From Candidatus Magasanikiibacteriota bacterium (GTDB taxonomy: Bacteria > Patescibacteriota > Patescibacteriia > Magasanikbacterales > GWA2-37-8), in the NCBI GenBank assembly GCA_041678665.1, contig JBAYNU010000003.1:12008-76007 (forward strand): 64,000 bases of DNA, given 5' to 3'. The notes below the pieces were generated by a model. That model did not search any database, was not told where the DNA came from, and saw only the letters and a list, made by a program, of their open reading frames with translations. Positions 1 to 53,352 of the stretch are shown here, piece after piece. How positions within the stretch are numbered: position 1 is the stretch's first letter; each line of letters begins with the position of its first letter. The position numbers and the translations under genes were made by a program.

Positions 1-45
1 TTTATTGAGCTATATTTTTATAATTTTTTAAATTATTTAATTACT

Positions 46-7852: not shown

Positions 7853-7936
7853 GCCCAGGTGGCGAAATTGGTAGACGCACTACCTTGAGGTGGTAACGCT
7901 CGTAAGGGCATGGAGGTTCGAGTCCTCTCCTGGGCA
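7853..7936 (+). tRNA. tRNA-Leu (anticodon GAG), type II
   Basis: Hand-folded cloverleaf: acceptor GCCCAGG/CCTGGGC, anticodon loop TTGAGGT, long variable arm, T-loop TTCGAGT; no encoded CCA. Confidence 0.75.
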
Positions 7937-7966
7937 CAAATAGGTATTCTTTTAAATGTCGCTATG

Positions 7967-10195: not shown

Positions 10196-10262
10196 GCCAT
10201 GCCTACCGGCAGGCAGGCGAAGCCCCGCCTCGGTGGGGTGGAGTCGAAGGATCTGTCATTTA
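10196..10262. repeat. GC-rich hairpin repeat (copy B)
   Basis: Contains CCCCGCC-tcggt-GGGGTGG and GGAGTCGAAGGATCTGTCAT, shared with copies at 11851 and 13214. Confidence 0.55.
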
Positions 10263-11235: not shown

Positions 11236-11841
11236 ATGTCTTTTATTAATTTGGTATTTTACTTTCTAGTAATCGTCCCCTCGGCTATTATTCACGAATA
11301 TGCCCATGGTTGGATGGCCGAGCGTTTGGGTGATAAAACCGCGCGTTATGCCGGTCGTCTTACCCTTAACCCGATTAAGCATATTGATCTGTGGGGTACG
11401 ATTTTGATGCCGATTGTTTTGTCGCTTTTAACTCAAGGCTCATTTATGTTTGCCTATGCCAAACCAGTGCCGTATAACCCATATAATTTAAAAAATCAGA
11501 AATGGGGACCGGCTTTGGTGGGTTTAGCGGGACCTTTGGCCAATTTTATGTTGGCTTTGGCATTTTCTATCGTAATTAGAATAATTCCAACCGCGCCCAT
11601 TTCGGAATTTTTGGGCATTATCGTTTACGCTAATTTGCTTTTGATGATTTTTAATTTAGTACCATTGCCACCTTTGGATGGCTCCAAGATATTGCTCGCG
11701 GCCTTGCCCGATGCTACTGCCTATAAAGTCCAACATTTTTTTGATCGTTGGGGATTTTTTATCTTATTACTTTTTGTTTTTTATTTATTCGATTTTATCG
11801 CGCCGATTATTACTGGGTTGTTTAGGGTGCTGGTCGGATAG
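11236..11841 (+). CDS. site-2 protease (peptidase M50) family protein
   Basis: H-E-Y-A-H-G HExxH zinc motif in TM helix, multiple TM segments, L-D-G motif. Confidence 0.65.
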   Translation: MSFINLVFYFLVIVPSAIIHEYAHGWMAERLGDKTARYAGRLTLNPIKHIDLWGTILMPIVLSLLTQGSFMFAYAKPVPYNPYNLKNQKWGPALVGLAGPLANFMLALAFSIVIRIIPTAPISEFLGIIVYANLLLMIFNLVPLPPLDGSKILLAALPDATAYKVQHFFDRWGFFILLLFVFYLFDFIAPIITGLFRVLVG

Positions 11842-11850
11842 TGTCTCACT

Positions 11851-11984
11851 GTCATCCTGAGCTTGCCCCGCCATGGCGGGGCGGAGTCGAAGGATCTCTT
11901 GCGCTTGTCATCCCCGCGAAAGCGGGGATCTGCCCTAATAAGTCGGGGATTCCCTCCGCCAGCTGGCGGATCGTGGGAATGACA
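11851..11984. repeat. composite GC-rich hairpin repeat cluster (copy D, 3 units)
   Basis: GTCATCCTGAGC...GGAGTCGAAGGATC; TGTCATCCCCGCGAAAGCGGGGATC; CCGCCAGCTGGCGG...GGGAATGACA. Confidence 0.6.
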
Positions 11985-12024
11985 TCGAGTGGTTACTCGT
12001 TTCGTTCAGAATGACAAACAAATT

Positions 12025-13224
12025 ATGCTCACTGTTCTATCCGTCTCCGAATTTATCTCTCAAATCAACGACATTATCGCCGGTGAATTTGTAGTGGAAG
12101 GTGAAATATCCGGCTATAAAGTATCCCAAGGCAAATGGGTATTTTTTGATCTCAAAGATGATCGTTCGGTTTTGAATTGTTTTGCAGTGTTGTATCAAAT
12201 CGGACAACCTTTGGAAGATGGCATGAAAGTACGAGTGGTGGGGTATCCGAAAATTTACGACAAATCAGGCCGATTTAGTTTGACGGTGCAGAAAGTAGAA
12301 ATGGTAGGCGAGGGGTCGCTCAAAAAAGCATATTTGCTCTTAAAGAAAAAATTAGAAGAAGAGGGGTTGTTCGCGTCCGCGCGCAAAAGAAATTTGCCGG
12401 AATTACCGGCGTGCATCGGAGTGATTGCTTCGCGCGATAGCGCCGCGTTTGGGGATTTTAAACGCATTATTAATAATCGTTGGAGCGGGCTCACGATTGA
12501 ATTATTTAATGTGGCGGTGCAGGGCGAACAAGCGGTGGGCGAAATTATCGCGGCGTTTGATTATTTTAATAACACCGCAGATAAGCCCGAAGTTTTGGTG
12601 CTCACGCGCGGTGGTGGGTCGCTGGAAGATTTGGGGGCGTTTAACAATGAACAAGTGGTGCGCGCGGTGTATGGCAGTAAAATTCCAGTAGTGTGCGGAG
12701 TGGGGCACGAGCGCGACGAATCACTTTGCGATTTTGCTGCTGATGTGCGCGCCTCCACCCCCAGCAATGCCGCCGAGATTGTGGCGCCGGACAAAAAAGA
12801 TTTTATCAATCAGTTGGAATTTTCTATGGATAATGCTTTGGGTAATTTAGAACACACTTTGACAAAAATGCGTCACGGTATTGATCAAGGATTTTTCGCT
12901 ATCATCAGTCGTTTAGAAGCGCCTTTGAATGGCTGCCGCAGATTGATTGATTCGTTTGTTGGATTAGTTGGTGATTTGGGAGCGAAGATTGAGAGACAAA
13001 GAGAATTTGTTTTGGGCGCGGAAAGATTATTTAACAATATCAACCCCAAGCGTGTTTTACAGCGTGGTTATAGCATTACGCGCGATAAATTAGGCCGAAT
13101 TATTCGTTCGGCCACCCAAGTGGACGCGGGCGACAAAATCATGGTAGAATTGAGCGAAGGAAGTGTGGGGGCGGAGGTGGTTGGTAACAAACCCAAACCC
13201 GCCCAAACACGATTGTCATTCTGA
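12025..13224 (+). CDS. xseA: exodeoxyribonuclease VII large subunit
   Basis: N-terminal OB-fold region (S-V-S-E-F-I-S-Q-I-N...G-E-I-S) and catalytic core; XseB is encoded 1.2 kb downstream; start moved to ATG 12025 to clear the repeat. Confidence 0.8.
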   Translation: MLTVLSVSEFISQINDIIAGEFVVEGEISGYKVSQGKWVFFDLKDDRSVLNCFAVLYQIGQPLEDGMKVRVVGYPKIYDKSGRFSLTVQKVEMVGEGSLKKAYLLLKKKLEEEGLFASARKRNLPELPACIGVIASRDSAAFGDFKRIINNRWSGLTIELFNVAVQGEQAVGEIIAAFDYFNNTADKPEVLVLTRGGGSLEDLGAFNNEQVVRAVYGSKIPVVCGVGHERDESLCDFAADVRASTPSNAAEIVAPDKKDFINQLEFSMDNALGNLEHTLTKMRHGIDQGFFAIISRLEAPLNGCRRLIDSFVGLVGDLGAKIERQREFVLGAERLFNNINPKRVLQRGYSITRDKLGRIIRSATQVDAGDKIMVELSEGSVGAEVVGNKPKPAQTRLSF

Positions 13225-13258
13225 GCGACCCGCCCATGGCGGGGAGTCGAAGAATCCC
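13214..13258. repeat. GC-rich hairpin repeat (copy E) overlapping xseA stop
   Basis: TGTCATTCTGAGCGACCCGCCCATGGCGGGGAGTCGAAGAATCCC. Confidence 0.55.
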
Positions 13259-13306
13259 TTTCGCCACCATTGTTAAATTGCTAAACTGTTAAATTGTTAT
13301 ATTGCT

Positions 13307-13807
13307 ATGAAAATTTTAGTTATATCCGACAGCCATGATAATGTGGCCAATTTGGAAAAAGTTTTAAAGTGGGCGAATAAAAATAATATTGAGGCGTTGA
13401 TTCACGCCGGAGATTTGAGCGCGCCCGGAGTTTTAAAAAATACTTTGGCGCCAGGATTTACCAAAGATATTTATATTATCAACGGCAATGTTTCTGATCC
13501 GGAATTATTGGCCAAAATTAGTTTGGATTTTTCTAATGTTAAATATCTTGGCGGTGAGGGCGAAGCCGAAATCGATGGGAGGAAGATTTATATTACTCAT
13601 TTTCCGCCACGCGCCCAAGCCATTGCCGGTGCCAGTGTGTATGATTTGGTGGTATTCGGGCATACGCACAAATCAGAAACAAGCCAATCCGGAAGTACTA
13701 AGCTGATCAATCCGGGGTCGGTGGGCGGTCTTTACAATCCTGCCACCTTCGCCACTTACGATACCCAAAATGGAGAAGTAAAGATTTTTGAAGTAAACAA
13801 AATATAA
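13307..13807 (+). CDS. metallophosphoesterase (YfcE/MJ0936-like)
   Basis: I-S-D-S-H-D, H-A-G-D-L, G-N-x-S-D, G-H-T-H motifs. Confidence 0.7.
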   Translation: MKILVISDSHDNVANLEKVLKWANKNNIEALIHAGDLSAPGVLKNTLAPGFTKDIYIINGNVSDPELLAKISLDFSNVKYLGGEGEAEIDGRKIYITHFPPRAQAIAGASVYDLVVFGHTHKSETSQSGSTKLINPGSVGGLYNPATFATYDTQNGEVKIFEVNKI

Positions 13808-15501: not shown

Positions 15502-15502
15502 T

Positions 15503-15568
15503 GTCATTCCCGCGAAAGCGGGAATCCGCGACTTAAAGGGGCAGATCCCCGCTTTCGCGGGGATGACA
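15503..15568. repeat. GC-rich palindromic repeat (copy F)
   Basis: TGTCATTCCCGCGAAAGCGGGAATC ... GATCCCCGCTTTCGCGGGGATGACA, near-perfect large palindrome with internal hairpins. Confidence 0.6.
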
Positions 15569-15740
15569 AATAAATATGCGTAACTATTCAAGTAACCGAG
15601 CGCAGAAAGGCAAGACGGCGTATCGCACGCCGAGTTTGTATAAGGCGAACAAAGCCATCAAAGCGGCTGATACCAAGGCGCGGATCGCGACGGTAACCAA
15701 TACCATTGATAATTTTTACCTAAGATTTAAAAAGTGATTT

Positions 15741-44922: not shown

Positions 44923-45657
44923 ATGGAAAACATTATTTTGAAATTTGAAAAGTCTGAATTTAAATTATCTCTGCGCGGCGAGGCTGATACCAGTGTAATG
45001 CGGGAGATTTTTAAATTACGTGAATATCGTAGAGCGGAAGAGGTAATCAAACAAGCCCAAGATCCGATTTTGGATGTTGGCGCTCATGCTGGCTTTTTTA
45101 GTTTATATTGTCGGGCGCTTAATCCTGTCGTTAAAATTTTAGGATTAGAGCCGGAAAAAAATAATTTAGAGTTTTTTGCTAAGCATTTAAAAAATAATAA
45201 AATTAAAGATGTAGCTATAATTGCCGGGGCTTTGGCTGGTAAAACAGGGGAGAGGGTATTAAAGATTTCTAGTGACAGCCACAATCACCGGCTAAATGAT
45301 AATCGGTTGCCGGAGGTATTTTTGTCAAAAGCCGGCTATCGGGATGAAACCGAAGTGAAAGTGAGAGTGTTTTCATTGTTCGATTTGTGTCGTTTACATA
45401 AAATTAAAAAATTGTCTTTAATTAAAATGGATATTGAAGGTGGAGAATTTGAAGTGTTTGAAAGTTTGATGTCAGAAGATTATTTGCTTTTTCAAAGTAT
45501 AATTTTAGAGTACCACAATAATATCGATCATTATCAAATAATAGAAAATAAATTGCGTGTTAATGGTTTTGGAGTGCAGGTATTTCCTTCCAAATTTGAT
45601 AAAACTATGGGGTTTATTTTTGCTTCTAATAAAAGAGGGGCAAGTATTAGCACTTAA
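44923..45657 (+). CDS. FkbM-family SAM-dependent methyltransferase
   Basis: I-L-D-V-G-A-H-A-G-F-F-S motif and overall Methyltransf_21-like pattern. Confidence 0.6.
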   Translation: MENIILKFEKSEFKLSLRGEADTSVMREIFKLREYRRAEEVIKQAQDPILDVGAHAGFFSLYCRALNPVVKILGLEPEKNNLEFFAKHLKNNKIKDVAIIAGALAGKTGERVLKISSDSHNHRLNDNRLPEVFLSKAGYRDETEVKVRVFSLFDLCRLHKIKKLSLIKMDIEGGEFEVFESLMSEDYLLFQSIILEYHNNIDHYQIIENKLRVNGFGVQVFPSKFDKTMGFIFASNKRGASIST

Positions 45658-45678
45658 ATAATTGCAGCTATTTTTTAT

Positions 45679-47001
45679 ATGAATAAAAAAGCCTGGGTAG
45701 TAACGGTGGATATGGGTTACGGCCATCAGCGCGCCGCTTTTCCTTTGCGCCACCTTTCGCCTTCGGGCAAGGTAATTGTTGCCAATAATTACGCTGGTAT
45801 TCCCGAGCATGATCGGCGGATTTGGGAATCTTCGCGTAAGTTTTACGAATTTGTTTCTCGCTTTACCAATATTCCGTTAATTGGTCGGTATATTTTTAAT
45901 ACTTACGATAAATTACAAAAAATTCCGGAATTTTATCCGCGTCGCGATATTTCTAATTCCAATTTACAAGTGCGGCAAATGTATCGTCTGATAAAAAATG
46001 GCTGGGGTAAAAATTTGATTGAATATTTAAACAGCGAAGATATTCCTCTTATTACTACTTTTTTTACGGTAGCTTTTTTTGCCGAGGAACATAAATTCAA
46101 AAATGATATTTATTGTGTGCTTTGTGATGCTGATGTTTCGCGCGCTTGGGTAGGGCTTTATCCACATCATAGTCGTATTAAATATTTGGCTCCTTGCCGG
46201 CGGGTGGTGGAGCGTCTCAAACTCTATGGGGTCAAGCCGGAAAATATTTTTCTTACTGGTTTTCCTTTGCCCGAAGAAAATTTGGGATCGAATTTAGAAA
46301 TTTTAAAAAATGATTTAGCCGAGCGGATTATCAATTTGGATCCGGAGCATCGTTATCGTCATAAATATGGTGAAACTGTTAAACATTTTTTGGAGAGTAT
46401 TAAAATTAATGATCATCACCATCATCCTCTCACTCTTACTTTTGCAGTCGGGGGAGCCGGCGCTCAGCGTAATTTAGCTTCCAATATTTTGTATAGTTTG
46501 CGGAAAAAATTATTAAAACAGGAAATCAATCTCAATTTGATTGCCGGCGTGCGCAACGATGTCTATATTTATTTTAAGGATCAAATTGCGCGTTTAAAAC
46601 TAGGAAAAGTTTTTGGTGAAAATTTAAATATTCTTTTTTCGGTAGATAAAGAGGATTATTTTTCCAAACTAAATTTTTGTTTGCGCACTACTGATATGTT
46701 TTGGACTAAACCCAGTGAGCTGGTGTTTTATAGCGCTTTAGGGCTTCCTATCGTAATGGCGCCATCGGTGGGGTCGCAGGAAGACTATAATCGGCTATGG
46801 CTCAAGACTATAGGGGCGGGAATTTCGCAAAATAACCCCCGTTATACGCATGAATGGCTGTTTGATTGGATTAACTCCGGTTGGCTCGCCGAAGCCGCTA
46901 TGGCAGGCTTTTTGGATGGTAGGCAATGGGGGGTGCATAATATTGAAGAAGTGGTTTTTTGTGGCGTCAAAGAACCAGCCAAAAATCACCAACTGTTGTA
47001 A
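45679..47001 (+). CDS. putative GT-B glycosyltransferase (MGDG-synthase/MurG-like)
   Basis: N-terminal D-M-G-Y-G-H-Q-R-A-A G-x-G-H motif; 440 aa. Confidence 0.4.
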   Translation: MNKKAWVVTVDMGYGHQRAAFPLRHLSPSGKVIVANNYAGIPEHDRRIWESSRKFYEFVSRFTNIPLIGRYIFNTYDKLQKIPEFYPRRDISNSNLQVRQMYRLIKNGWGKNLIEYLNSEDIPLITTFFTVAFFAEEHKFKNDIYCVLCDADVSRAWVGLYPHHSRIKYLAPCRRVVERLKLYGVKPENIFLTGFPLPEENLGSNLEILKNDLAERIINLDPEHRYRHKYGETVKHFLESIKINDHHHHPLTLTFAVGGAGAQRNLASNILYSLRKKLLKQEINLNLIAGVRNDVYIYFKDQIARLKLGKVFGENLNILFSVDKEDYFSKLNFCLRTTDMFWTKPSELVFYSALGLPIVMAPSVGSQEDYNRLWLKTIGAGISQNNPRYTHEWLFDWINSGWLAEAAMAGFLDGRQWGVHNIEEVVFCGVKEPAKNHQLL

Positions 47002-47016
47002 GAATTATGAACAAAT

Positions 47017-47048
47017 TAAAATCACCACCTTATAGGTGGTGATTTTAA
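47017..47048 (+). terminator. perfect hairpin terminator
   Basis: AAAATCACCACC-ttat-AGGTGGTGATTTT. Confidence 0.6.
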
Positions 47049-47049
47049 T

Positions 47050-47162
47050 TTGTTCACTACTTTTGAAAAAATACGAACCGATTTTACCGAAAATTAATTG
47101 GGCGGGCGGAAGGAAGGGGTGTGGGGAGGGAATTCCGCCCGCCCACCGTGGCCCTGTTCGGA
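47050..47162 (+). repeat. 113-bp inverted repeat, left copy (IR-L)
   Basis: Identical to reverse complement of 50777-50889; contains internal 12-bp-stem hairpin GGGCGGGCGGAA ... TTCCGCCCGCCC. Confidence 0.85.
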
Positions 47163-47196
47163 CTGACGATTTCAAGTTTTTCACGAGATACCGTAG

Positions 47197-47898
47197 TTAT
47201 TTTTTTCCTGTATTTTTGAAACTTTTGAAAAAGTCACGAAATTTGATAATTTTTGGTGCCATGTCGTGGTTAATAGAAAAAATGGCATGTGTAAATATAT
47301 TTGTAAGCTCAGCACGGTTAGATATCTCATTCTTCCAATCTTCACACCATTCTTTAAATTCTTTTTTGCTTTTTTTGATCGGCCTATTCTGCGGTCTTAA
47401 ATAGTGATCAAAATTAATATTATAATATAATTTATGTGTCAGAGTATTTCTTTCCTCAATAATTTTTTTGAGGTTCTTATTTGTCTCGAATTTTTTTATC
47501 GTGGATAACAACTTCGCTTGTTTAATAAAAGGATGATTAATAACATTTTTGATGTTTATATCATTTCCATTATAATTCAGTGGTAATATTTCATTCAAAA
47601 ATAACAACATCTTTTCTCTAAAACAATAAGCACGAAAACAGTAGTTCTCATAATGATAAACAAAATTAACGAGAGCATCGAATACATCTGGTGGGTGAGG
47701 GACAAAGCCGTTGCGCGTGTGTATTGATTTAATATTGAAAATACAAATTTGCGCACCGTGTTGCACTTGTTTATTAGTATAAACCAGCGTGTTCATCATC
47801 CTAATCATTTCTTTTAAACACTCCTTTGCCTTTGTATTTCTCGGAAAGTATTTTTTTGGAATATCTTGAATATGTATACAGTTGCTTTTTTTGGCCAT
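47197..47898 (-). CDS. hypothetical protein with HEPN-like R-x4-H motif
   Basis: 233 aa; E-R-N-T-L-T-H matches Rx4-6H; last gene of the cassette operon. Confidence 0.35.
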   Translation of the reverse strand: MAKKSNCIHIQDIPKKYFPRNTKAKECLKEMIRMMNTLVYTNKQVQHGAQICIFNIKSIHTRNGFVPHPPDVFDALVNFVYHYENYCFRAYCFREKMLLFLNEILPLNYNGNDINIKNVINHPFIKQAKLLSTIKKFETNKNLKKIIEERNTLTHKLYYNINFDHYLRPQNRPIKKSKKEFKEWCEDWKNEISNRAELTNIFTHAIFSINHDMAPKIIKFRDFFKSFKNTGKK

Positions 47899-47907
47899 AT
47901 ATTCAAT

Positions 47908-48672
47908 CTATTTGATTATAAACTTACCAGCTTTCACAAGTTTTATGCTATTATAATCGTTTACATCTTCAAATTTAAACTCCCAAATTGAATAGATATT
48001 TTCTTTGTCATCTTTATCAAAAAATAACGTGACGACCCTCTTTTTTGTATGTATTTGCCATTGTCTAAATGGATAGTATAGCTGGCGAATAATTACATTA
48101 TTTGCACTAAAATTTTTTGCTTCGATTAAAACTATTTGATCTTTGCCTTCGTAACCAGCATCAACTTCGGTCTGCACACTGGACACTTTAATTAACTGCT
48201 TGCCAACATAAAATTCGAAATCCGGTGTGTACTTCCGCCCTCGAATAGTAAGTACTAAACTTGGATCATCCATAAATGTTCGTATCAAACTTGCTGCATA
48301 GGCGTAATCCAAGTGTTGCATTTCAGAATTACCAATAAAAGATGAGTCAAGATGAAAGTTCAACTTACTATCGTAGATAGTAACACCAGTTTTAATTTTT
48401 GGTATACTAACATATCCCTCACCTTTAATAATGTCGTAATAGCCATTTTTTGTTGGTAATAAAAATAAACCGTTGTCTCTAAAAATTTTAGGACGATCTT
48501 CTCTGGTGTCTTGTTTACATAGAATACGCACCTCCTTTTCTGCTGTCTCCTTAAATCTTTGACAAGATTTTTTAATTTGGCCGGCCGATAACGGAAATGG
48601 CCCCTTATTAAAATTGTGCTTGATAATATCGTAGTCCTTAAATATTTTTTCCCAAGAACGAGAGTTTGCCAT
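47908..48672 (-). CDS. putative type II restriction endonuclease (PD-(D/E)xK-like)
   Basis: T-P-D-F-E-F ... I-E-A-K motif; downstream of beta-class MTase in same operon; start at internal ATG with AAGGA-like RBS (ORF-track start 48702 overlaps MTase by 26 nt). Confidence 0.45.
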   Translation of the reverse strand: MANSRSWEKIFKDYDIIKHNFNKGPFPLSAGQIKKSCQRFKETAEKEVRILCKQDTREDRPKIFRDNGLFLLPTKNGYYDIIKGEGYVSIPKIKTGVTIYDSKLNFHLDSSFIGNSEMQHLDYAYAASLIRTFMDDPSLVLTIRGRKYTPDFEFYVGKQLIKVSSVQTEVDAGYEGKDQIVLIEAKNFSANNVIIRQLYYPFRQWQIHTKKRVVTLFFDKDDKENIYSIWEFKFEDVNDYNSIKLVKAGKFIIK

Positions 48673-48676
48673 ATTT

Positions 48677-49468
48677 TTATAGTAATCCTTTTTTAATGTC
48701 ATTATAACGTTTGATAGATAAATCCAAATATTTTTTTTCTAAATCAATGCCGACAAACTTTCGGCCATTCAGTACGGCCGCCAATCCGGTAGTTGATGAG
48801 CCAGTAAAAGGATCTAATACAATATCTCCTTTATCAGTACTGGCCATAATAATACGTACAAGCAAATCAATTGGTTTTTGTGTAGGATGTTTGCCGTGAA
48901 TTTTTTCTTCTTTTTTGGGAGGATAAATAGCCCAAACGCTGCGCATTTGTAAATTTGGCTTTTTAATAAAATCCTCCGGCCAACTGCCGTTTTTCATGTC
49001 GTGATAATTGAACTTATGTTTTGCTTTTTTATCTTTGCGGGCCCAAATAAGCGTTTCATGGCTGGCGGTGAAAAATCGGCAACTTAAATTTGGCGAAGCA
49101 TTTGGTTTAAACCACGCAATATCGTTCAAAATGTGAAATTTTTCTGCTTGTAAAGCGAATCCACATTGGTAAATTGAGTGATAGGTTCCGCTGACCCAAA
49201 TAGTGCCGCTGGGTTTTAAAACTCGTTGGCACGCCCTGATCCAAGATAGTTGGAATTCAAAATCTTTTTTCAGACCATTACTCACATCCCATTCGCCTTT
49301 ATTTACACTTACCATTTTTCCGGCGTGTAGTGTAAAACCGCCGTTCGACAACAAATAAGGTGGATCGGCAAAGATCATGTCCACATAATTTTCCGGCAAC
49401 TTCGCTAAATAATCTATGCAGTTAGCGTGATATAATTTAAAATTTTGTCCAGAAAAATATGGCTTCAT
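48677..49468 (-). CDS. beta-class amino DNA methyltransferase (N6-adenine or N4-cytosine)
   Basis: N-terminal motif IV F-A-D-P-P-Y, C-terminal motif I V-L-D-P-F-T-G-S-S-T-T-G (IV before I = beta class). Confidence 0.8.
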   Translation of the reverse strand: MKPYFSGQNFKLYHANCIDYLAKLPENYVDMIFADPPYLLSNGGFTLHAGKMVSVNKGEWDVSNGLKKDFEFQLSWIRACQRVLKPSGTIWVSGTYHSIYQCGFALQAEKFHILNDIAWFKPNASPNLSCRFFTASHETLIWARKDKKAKHKFNYHDMKNGSWPEDFIKKPNLQMRSVWAIYPPKKEEKIHGKHPTQKPIDLLVRIIMASTDKGDIVLDPFTGSSTTGLAAVLNGRKFVGIDLEKKYLDLSIKRYNDIKKGLL

Positions 49469-49471
49469 AAC

Positions 49472-50392
49472 TTATTTAAAAAGTTTTTCGTGTATCTGCT
49501 TTACTAAAAATATGGCATAATCGATATCGTTTGCCGTTGTTATCGTGGTCATGCAATTGCGACCGTAACCGCGTTCTTCCCATGGCGTATCGACAACCTT
49601 GTTTTCAGGGTCTTTTAAGTCCTTTTTTTCGACGCGCACTAAACACAGATCCAATTTAGATTTGTATATATTAATCGCACATAGATTGTTTGTTCCGATT
49701 TTAAAAGCGACATAATTGCGATTAATTTTTATAATTATGCGACTATCTATACTCATGATTCTTTCCTTGATGTCATCGTAGATATTCGCGGAATTGTGCC
49801 AATCACTTTTGATCAAATCATCAATGGTGTATTTTTTAATTTCTTTACCAACATTTTCGATAGTTTTATTTTTAGAAACTGTTTTTATTGATTCACTTGT
49901 ATCGGGCGACTTCAATTGATTGAAAAGCACCAAATCATTGCTAAATTTTTTCACCTCCCACAATTCAATTGGCAAATCTTTAAAATTTATTGCATTCTGT
50001 TGGTAAGTAGTAAAAGAATTTGCTAAAAATAAGACCCTTGATTGTGACCAGTCAACATCCTCTCTTTTTAAACTCTTCCCTGTCTTTTCATTATATTCTA
50101 ATATAAAATCTGCTTTATTGTTTAACATCAAGGATAGGTAGGCATATCCCTGATCGATTACACTGAAACTCCTATCGCGTTTGAATTCTATTATTACGAA
50201 TGAATTGTTTTCTTCGTCAAAAGCCAATGTATCAATGCGGAAGTTATGTAAACTAAATTCAGAGCTAATAAATTTTACATCAAATACCAGCTCCAAATTG
50301 ATTTCGGTCAAATTTTGTATATCTTTTTCTAAATCTATTTGTAATTCTTTTACGGTTACTAATTTTTGATTTTCAATTTTAAAAATTGACAT
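49472..50392 (-). CDS. hypothetical protein with N-terminal PD-(D/E)xK nuclease-like motif
   Basis: D-T-L-A-F-D ... I-I-E-F-K-R-D pattern; 306 aa; 4 nt after the C-protein gene. Confidence 0.35.
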   Translation of the reverse strand: MSIFKIENQKLVTVKELQIDLEKDIQNLTEINLELVFDVKFISSEFSLHNFRIDTLAFDEENNSFVIIEFKRDRSFSVIDQGYAYLSLMLNNKADFILEYNEKTGKSLKREDVDWSQSRVLFLANSFTTYQQNAINFKDLPIELWEVKKFSNDLVLFNQLKSPDTSESIKTVSKNKTIENVGKEIKKYTIDDLIKSDWHNSANIYDDIKERIMSIDSRIIIKINRNYVAFKIGTNNLCAINIYKSKLDLCLVRVEKKDLKDPENKVVDTPWEERGYGRNCMTTITTANDIDYAIFLVKQIHEKLFK

Positions 50393-50396
50393 AAAA

Positions 50397-50621
50397 TTAT
50401 TTTATCAATTCATCAATACTTATTTCCAATCCCGCGGCGATTTTAACCACGGTTTGTATTGATGGCTTGGTAATGACATTTGATTCAATCTTTGTCAGTG
50501 TGGCATAGGGGATATCACATTTGCGAGCCAATTTATCCTGTGTTAATCCTTGTTTTAATCGCAATTTTTGGATTTTGTCCCCAATGGTCTCGCCTTGCTT
50601 TTTACTTTTTCCACTATCCAT
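50397..50621 (-). CDS. XRE-family HTH controller (C-protein-like) of the R-M operon
   Basis: 75 aa from ATG 50621 (MDSGKSKK...), Q-x-x-L-A-R-K-C-D-I-P-Y-A-T-L-T-K-I-E HTH; upstream ORF-track extension is translated IR. Confidence 0.6.
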   Translation of the reverse strand: MDSGKSKKQGETIGDKIQKLRLKQGLTQDKLARKCDIPYATLTKIESNVITKPSIQTVVKIAAGLEISIDELIK

Positions 50622-50726
50622 AGTATAATAGTATAGTTCGGAAAGTATATGTCGGTTCCCAACTGTGTATATTTTACCACGGTTCGCCAAACCAATCAAT
50701 ATCGAAAAGAAAAGTTTGCTTTTGGC

Positions 50727-50961
50727 CAAAACAAAGTTCGAGCCGACATTTTTACGGGTTCTTTGGCGGTTTTTTATCCGAACAGGGCCACGGTGGGCGG
50801 GCGGAATTCCCTCCCCACACCCCTTCCTTCCGCCCGCCCAATTAATTTTCGGTAAAATCGGTTCGTATTTTTTCAAAAGTAGTGAACAACGTTGGACAGG
50901 TCGGGTTTTCGGCCAAAATTCGCCAGCCCCTTTTCGCTAAAAATTCGATTTTTTTACCTTG
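50727..50961 (-). repeat. inverted duplicate of LSR 3' end/att region, split by IR-R
   Basis: 50727-50753 = revcomp of 52349-52375; 50884-50961 = revcomp of 52376-52453 (1 mismatch); 130 bp (24 bp + IR-R) lie between the two parts. Confidence 0.8.
50777..50889 (-). repeat. 113-bp inverted repeat, right copy (IR-R)
   Basis: Reverse complement identical to 47050-47162. Confidence 0.85.
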
Positions 50962-51013
50962 TCGTGGACACACGACGCCAAAAGCAAACTTTTCTTTTTT
51001 AATCGTTTATCGT

Positions 51014-52462
51014 ATGGCCAAATATATTCTCTACGCTCGCAAATCCACCGATGAGGAAGAAAGACAAGTATTGTCCATTGAAGCCCAACTGGCCGAGTTG
51101 CGCGAATTCGCCCAAAAGGAAAAACTTGAAATCGTCGCCTCGCTGTGCGAGGCAAAAACCGCCAAAGAACCCGGCCGAACCGTGTTCGGCGAAATGTTAT
51201 CCCGGATTTCCGCCGGTGAAGCCGATGGTATTTTGGCTTGGCATCCCGACCGCCTTGCTCGCAATCCAATAGACGGCGGGCAAGTGGTATATATGGTGGA
51301 CACGGGTAAAATAAATTCCCTCAAATTTCCGACTTTTTGGTTCGAAAACACTCCGCAGGGTAAATTTATGCTTAACATTGCTTTTGGCCAAAGTAAATAT
51401 TTCATAGATAACTTAAGCGAGAATATTAAACGAGGGCTAAGGCAAAAACTGCGCAGGGGTGAATGGCCCAGTTATGCTCCCGTTGGATATTTAAATGATC
51501 CCATCAGTAGAAATATTATCGTGGATAAAACCAAAAGCAATTATGTTAAGCAATTATTTGAAATGTACGCGACCGGAGAATACACTCTTTTGCAACTAAA
51601 AGAATATTTTGAAAAAGCGGGATTGGTAAGTCAAACAGGAAAAGTGTTGAGAGTTAGTAATATCCAGTATATTCTCCAGCGTTCAATTTACTGCGGAGTG
51701 TTTAAATATGGCGGCGAAATGTACGAAGGCAAACACGAGCCAATAATCACCAAGAAACTTTTTGACGATGTGCAAGCAGTTATGCGGAACAAAGGGCGAC
51801 CACACAATAAGAAAAATCATGAATATATCTTTGCCAGCAATCTGTTCAATTGTTCCTGTGGCTGTTGCATAACTGCTGAACGACAAAAGGGCCATGTGTA
51901 TTACCGCTGTACCAAAAAGAAAGGGCCCTGCGATGAAAAATATATCCGCGAGGAACTGTTGACCACGGAATTGCAGGCCCTTTTGCAAAAAGTTTCTTTG
52001 TCCGATGATTGGGCCGAAAAAATGCTCGAAATGTTGGATAATGAGAAACAAACCAAGGCCCAATCATCGTCTGCCCTTGTTCAATCGTTAGAGAGCCAAT
52101 TAGAGGCCGTAAAACAGAAGCTGGATAAACTGCTCGACGCCCATTTGGAGGGTACGATAGACAAAGCCATCTACCTCAAAAAGAAAGAGCAGTTTATCTC
52201 GCTGAAAGTCACCCTTGAAGAGCAAATTAAAGAAATTTTGAACAAGGGCACCAATTGGCTCGAACCGATGAGGGAATTTATTTTATCCAGTTGTAGAGCC
52301 AAAAAAATCGCCTTCAAAGGCGATCTGGCGGAAATCCGTACATTTCTCAAAAATGTCGGCTCGAACTTTGTTTTGAAAGGCAAAAAAATCGAATTTTTAG
52401 CGAAAAGGGGCTGGCGAATTTTGGCCGAAAACCCGACCTGTCCAACGTTGTTCCGAGACTAG
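51014..52462 (+). CDS. large serine recombinase (integrase/invertase candidate)
   Basis: Y-A-R-K-S-T-D-E-E-E-R-Q catalytic motif, recombinase domain, zinc ribbon C-S-C-G-C-C ... C-T-K-K-K-G-P-C; start at ATG 51014; last 4 codons overlap tRNA-Gln(CUG). Confidence 0.8.
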   Translation: MAKYILYARKSTDEEERQVLSIEAQLAELREFAQKEKLEIVASLCEAKTAKEPGRTVFGEMLSRISAGEADGILAWHPDRLARNPIDGGQVVYMVDTGKINSLKFPTFWFENTPQGKFMLNIAFGQSKYFIDNLSENIKRGLRQKLRRGEWPSYAPVGYLNDPISRNIIVDKTKSNYVKQLFEMYATGEYTLLQLKEYFEKAGLVSQTGKVLRVSNIQYILQRSIYCGVFKYGGEMYEGKHEPIITKKLFDDVQAVMRNKGRPHNKKNHEYIFASNLFNCSCGCCITAERQKGHVYYRCTKKKGPCDEKYIREELLTTELQALLQKVSLSDDWAEKMLEMLDNEKQTKAQSSSALVQSLESQLEAVKQKLDKLLDAHLEGTIDKAIYLKKKEQFISLKVTLEEQIKEILNKGTNWLEPMREFILSSCRAKKIAFKGDLAEIRTFLKNVGSNFVLKGKKIEFLAKRGWRILAENPTCPTLFRD

Positions 52463-52521
52463 GATTCGAACCTAGATAACGAGATTCAGAGTCTCGTGTC
52501 CTACCATTAGACGATCTCGGA
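52451..52521 (-). tRNA. tRNA-Gln (anticodon CUG)
   Basis: Reverse complement: acceptor TCCGAGA/TCTCGGA, anticodon stem CGAGA/TCTCG with loop CTCTGAA, T-loop TTCGAAT. Confidence 0.7.
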
Positions 52522-52524
52522 GTT

Positions 52525-53352
52525 CTAATCTTTTATTCTCGTTGTGCTTAGTGGTATGGATTCCAGCCATTCTTTACTTACAATTCGCACCCAATTCCAT
52601 TGCCATTTGTGATTTTTAAAAACTTGTGGATTGTTAATGCCATACCTATTTCCATATTGTAAATAGTAGACACCTTTTTCGCCAGCCAATCTTACTAGTT
52701 TAGGCGCCGTGAACAATACCCGTGCTGGGCCATCCGCTTTGCCGGTTTTGTGATTAAAATCGTGTAAACTGCTGGTGATAATATCATATTTGTAGCGATA
52801 GTCAATACCCGACTTGTGATTGCCCGGGTCATCGACAATAAATTCTTTCTTAATGTCATCAAATCCGGTAATAGGCATAACATGATAATACGAGCCCCCG
52901 CGTCGCCAAGGAATATTGGGATTTTTAAGATCGTAACCATAGTGGAATGAAATTACCGGGCGGTCGGATTTTAATTCATTCAAAATATCTTCTAATGTGG
53001 GATCATTTTTGATATAAGCCGAAAAGGAGGTGTAGTCGTTTATCAGTTTAGCGGTGCGGACGGCATCAGTATCGGCGTTATTGTTCCAAAGTTTTGTTTG
53101 GATACCAAACAATGGCCACATTAATTTTTTGGCTTCGGCGCGGGTGAGACGCGCTTTATGATTACCGGCATAAAATTGTTCTATCATTACAATCGCAGCT
53201 TCTTCGCAGGCGTTGTTCCATGGTTTTATCCAGCTACCATCGGGGATTTCGGAAGTGTAGGGGACTCCTAAATTAACCACTGTGGATGTAGTATTAGCCC
53301 AAGCGATAGCGGGTAAAAGTAAACAAAAGAGAGTGGTGACCAACGTTCTCAT
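52525..53352 (-). CDS. secreted papain-like (C39-like/Peptidase_C39_2) domain protein
   Basis: Signal peptide; P-W-N-N-A-C-E-E-A-A-I-V-M putative catalytic Cys region. Confidence 0.45.
   Translation of the reverse strand: MRTLVTTLFCLLLPAIAWANTTSTVVNLGVPYTSEIPDGSWIKPWNNACEEAAIVMIEQFYAGNHKARLTRAEAKKLMWPLFGIQTKLWNNNADTDAVRTAKLINDYTSFSAYIKNDPTLEDILNELKSDRPVISFHYGYDLKNPNIPWRRGGSYYHVMPITGFDDIKKEFIVDDPGNHKSGIDYRYKYDIITSSLHDFNHKTGKADGPARVLFTAPKLVRLAGEKGVYYLQYGNRYGINNPQVFKNHKWQWNWVRIVSKEWLESIPLSTTRIKD

Follow-up and report, generated by a model that had tools for sequence, protein, structure and literature searches.

A three-site, six-repeat scaffold in a family of tRNA-targeting serine recombinase islands, and the possible inversion of its recombinase gene

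Serine integrases, such as those of phiC31, Bxb1, A118/LI and the Ccr system of SCCmec, combine Resolvase, Recombinase and zinc-ribbon domains and recombine attP with attB at a short common core; a general scheme of the reaction is given in PMC5814800. They are leading tools for engineering genomes with large cargo. Their reaction runs one way and normally calls for a separate directionality factor. Here we describe a 5.4-kb integrative island driven by a large serine recombinase (LSR). It occupies positions 47056-52453 of a 64,000-nt stretch (the window) of contig JBAYNU010000003.1 from a Candidatus Magasanikiibacteriota bacterium (assembly GCA_041678665.1), with a host terminator hairpin on one side and the 3' end of a tRNA-Gln(CTG) gene on the other. 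The island resembles the elements named above in its domains and its core, but the family to which it belongs targets the 3' end and T-arm of many tRNA genes, carries attP within the recombinase's own last codons and a second, inverted attP 5' of that gene, and has four short inverted anchors and no conserved directionality factor or other gene. On balance, we think it probable, if not strongly so, that this conserved scaffold of three sites (attL, inverted attP and attR) makes the LSR gene an invertible cassette.

Two groups of described inversion systems come close to such a cassette. The invertible segments of Hin, Gin, Cin and PinQ are bounded by inverted sites beside or containing the recombinase gene and, as is seen among relatives of the island, occur in both orientations in nature. 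Those enzymes are small (~190 aa, with a C-terminal helix-turn-helix, a Fis-bound enhancer and short hix or gix sites), whereas the island encodes a 482-aa integrase with recombinase and zinc-ribbon domains whose att sites also serve integration, and here the recombinase gene itself would flip and have its C-terminus rewritten. In gene-altering programmed inversions such as those of hsdS and PglX, an inverted partial copy of a 3' end permits exchange of the coding end, as the inverted copy in the island would; Milman et al. 2023 (PMC9881135) describe such systems, in which the copies differ, protein variants result and a separate recombinase acts. The island's copy is, by contrast, identical up to the core, only the residues beyond the core would change, and the affected gene is the recombinase. 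The survey in PMC9881135 does not include this architecture, and a full-text literature search returned no description of an internal inverted attP, of integrase-derived anchors or of a T-arm-targeting LSR family in Patescibacteria.

Three sites in the window carry the core TTGTTC: attL at 47050-55, an internal site at 50884-89 (reverse complement) and attR at 52448-53. In all three the arms switch exactly at the core. attL joins a host arm to the P' arm, and attR joins the P arm, formed by the last 77 nt of the LSR gene, to the tRNA arm; 52349-52453 comprises the P arm and core of attR together with the last 35 LSR codons. The minus strand of 50777-50960 reads as the last 77 nt of the LSR gene, TTGTTC, and then the 113 nt that begin the element at 47050, and the reverse complement of 50860-50900 accordingly gives LSR end, TTGTTC and element start. 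Because this junction equals the one that a circularised element would have, 50777-50960 is, judged from its sequence, a complete inverted attP (P arm, core and P' arm) just upstream of the LSR gene.

The recognition motifs fit this assignment. In the window, the first arm of the island, p, holds ACGAAC 18-23 nt from the core as well as an internal GC-rich hairpin, and the 3' end and T-arm of tRNA-Gln(CTG), which form the B' arm of attR, hold TTCGAAC 12-18 nt from the core. Across 52 distinct relatives (T/C)CGAAC is conserved at +18..23 of the P' arm, and TCGAAC, from the T-loop, stands at +13..18 of the tRNA arm. The outer motif of attP is thus displaced outward by 5 nt compared with that of the tRNA (attB) arm, as in other serine-integrase elements. 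Rutherford and colleagues reportedly described such a 5-bp displacement between attP and attB, a signature of serine-integrase sites, in 2013. [quoted passage not shown] What is recognised is the universal T-arm, and relatives therefore sit at 14 tRNA species. On the other side of the island, the host terminator lies 3' of a DUF6938 gene (45679-47001) and forms a 49-nt near-perfect palindrome (47008-47056) with the core at both ends (GAACAA ... TTGTTC); the crossover core is thus part of a host hairpin common to the DUF6938 gene and the tRNA.

Self-comparison of the locus bore out the repeats from which this work started. The segment 50884-50960 is the reverse complement of 52377-52453 with one mismatch in 77 nt (76/77), 50727-50753 matches 52349-52375 at 27/27, and 47050-47162 matches 50777-50889 at 113/113 (E-values of 6e-37, 2e-9 and 8e-61 by BLAST within a 5.7-kb region). 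The LSR gene does, as first described, lie between inverted repeats of ~77 nt. The 113-nt and 77-nt arms share a 6-nt overlap, GAACAA/TTGTTC, and the GTTGTTC junction common to the repeats, originally taken for microhomology, corresponds to the crossover core. A more sensitive self-comparison added three exact inverted pairs of 22, 20 and 18 nt, formed by b, n2' and n1' with their partners (Table 1). On the plus strand the blocks run p, n1', cargo, b, a1', n2', p', core', a2', hairpin y, B', LSR, core and tRNA, and within the LSR gene n1, hairpin pal, n2, and, further on, a1 and a2. Anchor n1' starts 2 nt from the inner end of p and n2' ends 2 nt from p'; the junction of b and a1' forms the palindrome TTTTGGCCAAAA, and a1' contains GTTCGAGCC, similar to a tRNA T-arm.

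Table 1. Features of the island and its borders, in window coordinates
Feature	Position	Strand	Basis or content
Host bidirectional terminator hairpin, B (left) arm of attL	47008..47055	.	49-nt palindrome; last 6 nt TTGTTC = crossover core
Arm p: core TTGTTC and P' arm of attP, extended to 113 nt	47050..47162	+	113/113 inverted match
Anchor n1', reverse complement of LSR nt 106-123 (51119-51136)	47165..47182	+	18/18
Cargo: HEPN_Cthe2314, DUF6996/6997, N6_N4 methylase, NucS_C/DUF5655-like, HTH_3 regulator	47197..50623	-	Pfam
Anchor b, reverse complement of B' (50977-50998)	50705..50726	+	22/22
Anchor a1', reverse complement of LSR 52349-52375	50727..50753	+	27/27
Anchor n2', reverse complement of LSR nt 141-160 (51154-51173)	50755..50774	+	20/20
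Internal inverted attP (attI)	50777..50960	-	p' 50777-50889, core' 50884-50889, a2' 50884-50960
Hairpin y, GTCGTG-gaca-CACGAC, between a2' and B'	50961..50976	+	sequence
B', 16-37 nt upstream of LSR start codon, partner of b	50977..50998	+	22/22
LSR gene, 482 aa	51014..52462	+	Resolvase + Recombinase + Zn_ribbon_recom (Pfam)
n1 51119-51136; hairpin pal GCCTCGC-TGT-GCGAGGC 51137-51153; n2 51154-51173	51119..51173	+	inside LSR coding sequence
a1 52349-52375; a2 52377-52447; core TTGTTC 52448-52453	52349..52453	+	inverted matches
tRNA-Gln(CTG)	52450..52521	-	ARAGORN; Rfam tRNA, 67 bits

The preliminary description had joined the 77-nt and 27-nt pieces into one contiguous att-like duplicate, later split by a 113-bp element, and had offered a footprint of serial recombination as one possible explanation; such a footprint would be specific to this genome. 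The pieces are indeed parted by 24 + 113 nt, and the junction shares TTGTTC. However, the copy of 52377-52453 sits to the right of the copy of 52349-52375, where a plain inverted copy would place it on the left; the order of the pieces is opposite to what an insertion leaves, so they are not one duplicate split by an insertion. The 113-nt arm also runs seamlessly from the 77-nt arm as the attP junction, the two together forming a single uninterrupted attP copy, and the layout is family-wide: dozens of diverged relatives have kept the six-pair mosaic, with arms that match at ~99% inside each element. We therefore regard a split duplicate as highly improbable.

A single inversion, a deletion, a replicative transposition and a palindromic dimer were each considered as the origin of the mosaic, and none of them yields the arrangement seen, in which all three LSR blocks look inverted at their own positions. 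Nor are the short junctions integrase products, since n1 is joined to the distal, not the core-proximal, end of the P' arm. Within the LSR gene, at nt ~365-384 (51374-51401), there is a further palindrome, TTTTGGCCAAA, which matches the b/a1' junction (50716-50735) directly at 18/20 positions. The minus strand of 50397-50876 holds a 159-aa open reading frame, perhaps a chance one, that spans n2, a1 and B' from a point within p' and reads on in frame into the helix-turn-helix regulator gene.

Six relatives (L002-L007) encode an LSR of 83-84% identity, all lie at tRNA-Gln(CTG), and all carry the same six inverted pairs at equivalent places; they come from independent NCBI, JGI and ENA assemblies and their cargo is wholly different. 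Two scans of sequence collections each yielded more than 500 confirmed relatives, mostly from Patescibacteria with some from other phyla, and in the 160 further loci that we fetched the LSR identities were 51-83%. An a2-type inverted repeat occurs in 133 of these 160 (42-159 nt, mean identity 98.8%). Of the 78 loci whose upstream sequence extends for 2 kb or more, 54 have a p-type repeat (43-330 nt, mean identity 98.6%). A tRNA gene adjoins the a2 arm in 86/116 loci, and 33 loci hold the complete set of six pairs.

Placement of the short anchors is equally regular. Gaps between neighbouring arms have medians of 0-1 nt across relatives, and the n1-n2 gap is always 17-20 nt. Anchor n1' stands at the same position in 48 of the 63 relatives with a p inverted repeat (median gap 0 nt), and the core overlap measures 4-8 nt in 54 of those 63. 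Among 101 relatives, b is found in 60 (median gap to a1' 1 nt), a1' in 67 and n2' in 54 (median gap to p' 0 nt). Hairpin y is palindromic with another sequence in L008, L012 and L019 and is missing in some relatives. The spacer between p and p', which holds cargo and anchors, spans 0.6-7.3 kb, the smallest being 603 nt; no cargo-less form with p joined straight to p' was found among the relatives, and the smallest cargos encode unrelated small proteins, with no common recombination directionality factor (RDF) or regulator. Together, these results show that the mini-islands of a large, tRNA-targeting LSR family, whose cargo is freely exchangeable, are as a rule built on the three-site, six-repeat scaffold.

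Two variations were seen alongside this standard build. In a subfamily comprising L033, L036, L038, L039 and L056, anchors of 16-20 nt directly 5' of the start codon match LSR nt ~265 and ~360. In L052 (10475-10560) and 3' of a2 in L045, L105, L107, L117 and L160, tRNA-like targets were left uncalled by ARAGORN; beyond a T-arm they have ...GGTTACG... and additional sequence, as would suit tRNA genes that contain introns.

A chimeric join of integrated and excised forms, or a fold-back at the repeats, could in principle create such a pattern during assembly. Many related contigs do break exactly at the a2' arm, and L171, a low-coverage SPAdes contig, has an odd junction in a 29-51-nt repeat. 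Against this, the same architecture comes from different assemblers and sources (NCBI metagenome-assembled genomes (MAGs), JGI, ENA MEGAHIT k141 and complete genomes) and from different species, and the recurrence of one six-pair layout around unrelated cargo rules out both an artefact and a one-off footprint. Furthermore, the Logan contig L001 (SRR6484787), which carries the window's methylase, ends 30 nt inside p, as a repeat branch in reads would give. We take its assembly to have used k=31, so that 30 nt is k-1, and an end at this point would mean that the reads, too, branch at the repeat. The probability that the locus is an assembly artefact is, in our estimate, negligible.

Although the arms diverge between elements, they are ~99% identical within each. 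Over all classes of arm we counted 118 mismatches in ~12,700 compared positions. Anchors match their own LSR gene at 0.986-0.998 and the LSR genes of other elements at 0.66-0.90. The sequences of a2, a1 and n2 differ among the window, L002 and L004, and the internal copies track the LSR gene of their own element; between the a2 arms of the window and L008, about a quarter of positions differ by eye, each matching its own partner. The mismatches show no G.T strand bias (44 versus 38), and transition-type exceed transversion-type changes by ~2:1 (82 versus 36). Selection for pairing cannot keep arms of 77-113 nt 99% identical, so gene conversion at the DNA level must act on the long arms; selection for long arms at the RNA level was rejected on the lack of G.T strand bias.

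The possibility that the LSR gene inverts is addressed by the arrangement of relatives, ~94% of which are organised like the window. Conversely, in L172, a 55-kb contig, a plus-strand tRNA-Gln lies directly 5' of a2'-y-B'-LSR and the 3' end of the LSR gene is joined to p, beyond which follow n2, a1 and B' as direct repeats, co-oriented cargo, n1 and p'. Its p arms match at 90/90 and its a2 arms at 75/79, and all four anchors are direct repeats, an order that corresponds exactly to what flipping the LSR module between a2' and a2 would produce. The tRNA is also upstream of the LSR gene, with the module flipped, in L113; in L170 the LSR 3' end is joined to p and then to co-oriented cargo, and in L102 it is the cargo module, instead of the LSR gene, that is flipped. 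In L171, a1 of the LSR gene runs straight into B' and a second cargo, which indicates recombination at a 29-nt anchor, with a low-coverage misjoin as a possible alternative. The early suggestion of an invertible recombinase module is thus borne out by L172 and L113, where the LSR gene is opposite relative to the tRNA, its 3' end is joined to the other arm and its C-terminal tail differs. The two orientations were seen in different relatives and not within one population, and the window's own element was seen in the resting form only.

The C-terminal ends of the proteins tell a similar story. Among 175 LSR proteins, the C-terminus is translated T-arm (...DSN...) in 115, falls near the core in 34 and is translated P' arm (...IRTxF...) in 11 (6%). 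Tails of this last kind show that the a2-core-p junction exists, though it may stem from flipped or tandem copies and not from circles. Both tails are represented in each of three clusters of 90% identity (P0005/P0134, P0021/P0152 and P0043/P0179), in agreement with the proposal that the coding end can be swapped. The window's LSR, whose stop codon lies 9 nt beyond the core within the tRNA gene, ends in ...TLF-RD*; the flipped version would read ...TLF-TTFEKIRTDFTEN*.

These arrangements suggest how the switch might work. The same P arm and core stand inverted at both ends of the 1.5-kb LSR module, so recombination of the internal attP with attR would invert the whole module, regenerate both sites and keep every site intact. 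In doing so it would rewrite the last LSR residues from RD to TTFEKIRTDFTEN, exchange the upstream context of the gene between the cargo side, with its antisense anchors, and the tRNA gene, and turn an LSR gene that is divergent from the cargo at rest into one co-oriented with it. The window would represent the common 'resting' orientation, in which a predicted sigma-70-like plus-strand promoter at 50601-50629 would make b, a1', n2', p' and a2', and so the antisense anchors among them, part of the LSR leader. A bias to the resting state would follow if the LSR is poorly expressed there, and we liken it to that of the fim-type switches discussed in PMC9881135. The short anchors probably silence or structure the resting LSR transcript, or serve as secondary recombination points; this is the least certain part of the scheme.

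As for the catalyst, we think that the LSR itself would perform the flip, because attR keeps the one attB half-site that is conserved, the tRNA T-arm, and in that respect is still target-like. Junctions of the type a2(A)-core-p(B) in the arrays L084, L057 and L173 show that sites of hybrid make-up can still be used as targets when they retain the tRNA arm, and an attP x attR reaction is therefore plausible. In L084 (3400-14200) a tandem or nested array at one tRNA-Ser holds an intact element A, an element B with a frameshifted LSR gene and, to the left of A, the P-arm remnant of a third copy. Classical serine integrases are not known to carry out an attP x attR reaction, so homologous recombination between the 77-nt arms is a possible alternative.

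Several observations weigh against inversion of the LSR gene as a working switch. A single orientation is found in the window and in the ~94% of relatives noted above, so flipping must be rare, strongly biased or selected against. Serine integrases are not known to recombine attP with attR in the absence of a directionality factor, and an LSR-catalysed flip is an assumption. The a2 arms of flipped relatives tend to be more diverged (88-95% in L102, L172, L173 and L174) than the ~99% of resting ones, and flipped copies could be dead ends rather than a working state. Inversion alone also leaves unexplained the exact abutment of four 18-37-nt anchors and their identity to the LSR gene. Finally, no empty attB and no excised circle was found, the exact attP-junction patterns being unmatched in genome and metagenome contigs.

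The abutting anchors are the strength of a different explanation, in which the six arm pairs and two hairpins exist so that a single strand, either single-stranded DNA (ssDNA) or the LSR transcript, can fold into a duplex attP. In such a fold, a2-core-p would pair with p'-core'-a2' to give the duplex, capped at each end by a four-way junction that leaves 0-2 nt unpaired: one made of [a2:a2'], hairpin y, [B':b] and [a1':a1], the other of [p:p'], [n1':n1], hairpin pal and [n2:n2']. The integrated layout would then equal a single-stranded circle that has folded and been opened in just one of its arms, like the attP of CTXphi, used by XerCD, or the attC sites of integrons, used by IntI (PMC3442271, PMC4792948). 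In those systems, as in the island, inverted att halves can pair within one strand, and one arm is split between the ends of the integrated form while the other stays intact inside. They depend, however, on tyrosine recombinases acting on a single strand pair with imperfect arms, whereas the island, with its potential to form hairpins, has near-perfect arms and a serine enzyme as its only recombinase. The 2-micron plasmid offers another likeness: an excised island circle would have two perfect 190-nt inverted repeats parting two unique segments, one of which encodes the recombinase. FLP, which acts at FRT, is nevertheless a tyrosine recombinase of a eukaryotic replicon in which flipping serves to amplify copy number, and the island has no evident replication function.

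Folding would account for arms that lie only 0-2 nt apart in the window, with medians of 0-1 nt in relatives, for an n1-n2 gap that always has the size of hairpin pal, for the palindromes kept by y with differing sequences, and for the single orientation of nearly all loci; the promoter at 50601-50629 would likewise put the antisense anchors in the LSR leader. Covariation points the same way. Although pal lies in coding sequence, 86% of cells are paired in 133 relatives, compared with 72% in shuffles and 29-49% in slid controls; none of 500 shuffles reaches the observed value, double (compensatory) changes number 151 against 47 in shuffles, and G.T pairs number 41 on the sense strand against 10 on the antisense strand. 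The covariation and this asymmetry keep a role for a single strand, of RNA or ssDNA, alive.

Conversely, a 196-bp duplex and a 48-bp a1/n2 rod would each link the two junctions, so that not all of these parts could form without sharp bending, and the pairing pattern is pseudoknotted. A hairpin attP would lead to a broken chromosome, since a serine recombinase cuts both strands. The LSR gene alone is conserved, with no conserved gene that would produce ssDNA; the long and short arms together lack a G.T strand bias, which argues against selection at the RNA level; and the anchors are perfect in L172 and L102 even though they are direct repeats there. We therefore consider it unlikely that the arms exist for folding. 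Slightly better, but still doubtful, in our view is a 'folding code' that would rebuild attP from ssDNA, or sense whether the element is integrated, flipped or circular and gate LSR expression accordingly, in combination with an RDF-less attP x attR self-flip.

The mosaic might instead be an inherited relic, left when an element inserted into the LSR gene of an inverted second copy, or by a rearranged dimer, after which the outer copy was hollowed out and filled with cargo, its remains kept alike by gene conversion only and having no function. Read on the minus strand, the outer pieces come in the sequence that the LSR gene would have on a circle (B' - cargo - n1 - [LSR module] - n2 - a1 - B'), nested or tandem arrays with decayed LSR copies exist (L084), and a truncated LSR is present on viral contigs. 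However, neutral pieces of 18-37 nt in non-homologous flanks should decay, and these match their own LSR gene at 0.99 across LSRs down to 51% identity. Anchor positions are fixed to the nucleotide in at least 33 lineages, and no relative was seen that lacks cargo or has an intact outer LSR at this position. A functionless relic is accordingly, in our judgement, quite unlikely.

The LSR of the window scores 1e-20 with PF00239, 1.2e-14 with PF07508 and 2.8e-4 with PF13408, the last at 21.7 bits, under the gathering score of 25.3 bits; the expected serine is present in the N-terminal motif YARKSTDEE. The protein is 100% identical to one from a Ca. Magasanikbacteria MAG, and exact look-ups of the LSR in three forms returned no contig. 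Proteins at least 90% identical to one another (clusters of P0039 and P0043) come from Hippea maritima, Schleiferia thermophila and a 'Pacearchaeota' MAG, which suggests either recent spread across phyla or mis-binning. The LSR is the sole gene common to the elements and no RDF is conserved among them; individual cargos could each encode an unrecognised one. On all testable points other than a directionality factor and an observed empty site or circle, the island is a serine-integrase element.

If the integrase does flip attP x attR, it would provide a natural route to reversible reactions from a serine integrase alone, and if the anchors act by base pairing they would constitute a new control layer for such elements; a folding code or an RDF-less self-flip would each be a property new for serine integrases. 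The family is widespread and very compact, the LSR being its only conserved gene, and its target, the tRNA T-arm and 3' end, is near-universal, with LSR clusters of at least 90% identity spanning distant phyla. Such islands explain how restriction-modification, defence and surface genes are exchanged as cassettes in the reduced genomes of Patescibacteria, which lack most classical transfer systems.

A phage origin of the LSR was also considered and rejected. Matches in a phage collection were to distant integrases only (at most 25.5% identity among the matches listed), and IMG/VR gave two contigs, both with a truncated LSR. These two contigs, L168 (1-372) and L169, carry an LSR copy of 75% identity cut after residue ~117 (...PQGKF), followed by a restriction-modification pair, an IS1595-like transposase and phage-like genes.

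Between the terminator and the LSR gene, the cargo of the window's island consists of six genes, all on the minus strand. A search of 46900-52700 against Rfam 15 placed the tRNA alone above its gathering score, the remaining hits falling on the host terminator hairpin, far below threshold. In L176, whose LSR is 73% identical, the DUF6938 and methyltransferase genes that occupy 44923-47001 of the window are found at 11556-13719, on the tRNA side and in opposite orientation, which hints at larger host rearrangement around the islands.

Elsewhere in the window, ARAGORN reported an 85-nt tRNA without an assigned identity at 7853-7937, with a two-base anticodon, 'tg'. It may contain an intron or be otherwise unusual; such tRNAs have been described for Patescibacteria (PMC13011429). 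Within 5 kb of this AT-rich genome there is also a family of GC-rich hairpin repeats (10222-10254, 11865-11897, 13225-13257 and 15502-15568) with the motifs GCCCCGCC..GGCGGGGC..GAGTCGAAGGATCT and TGTCATCCCCGCGAAAGCGGGGATC, and a 50-nt inverted pair of 92% identity is formed by 11905-11954 and 15520-15569.

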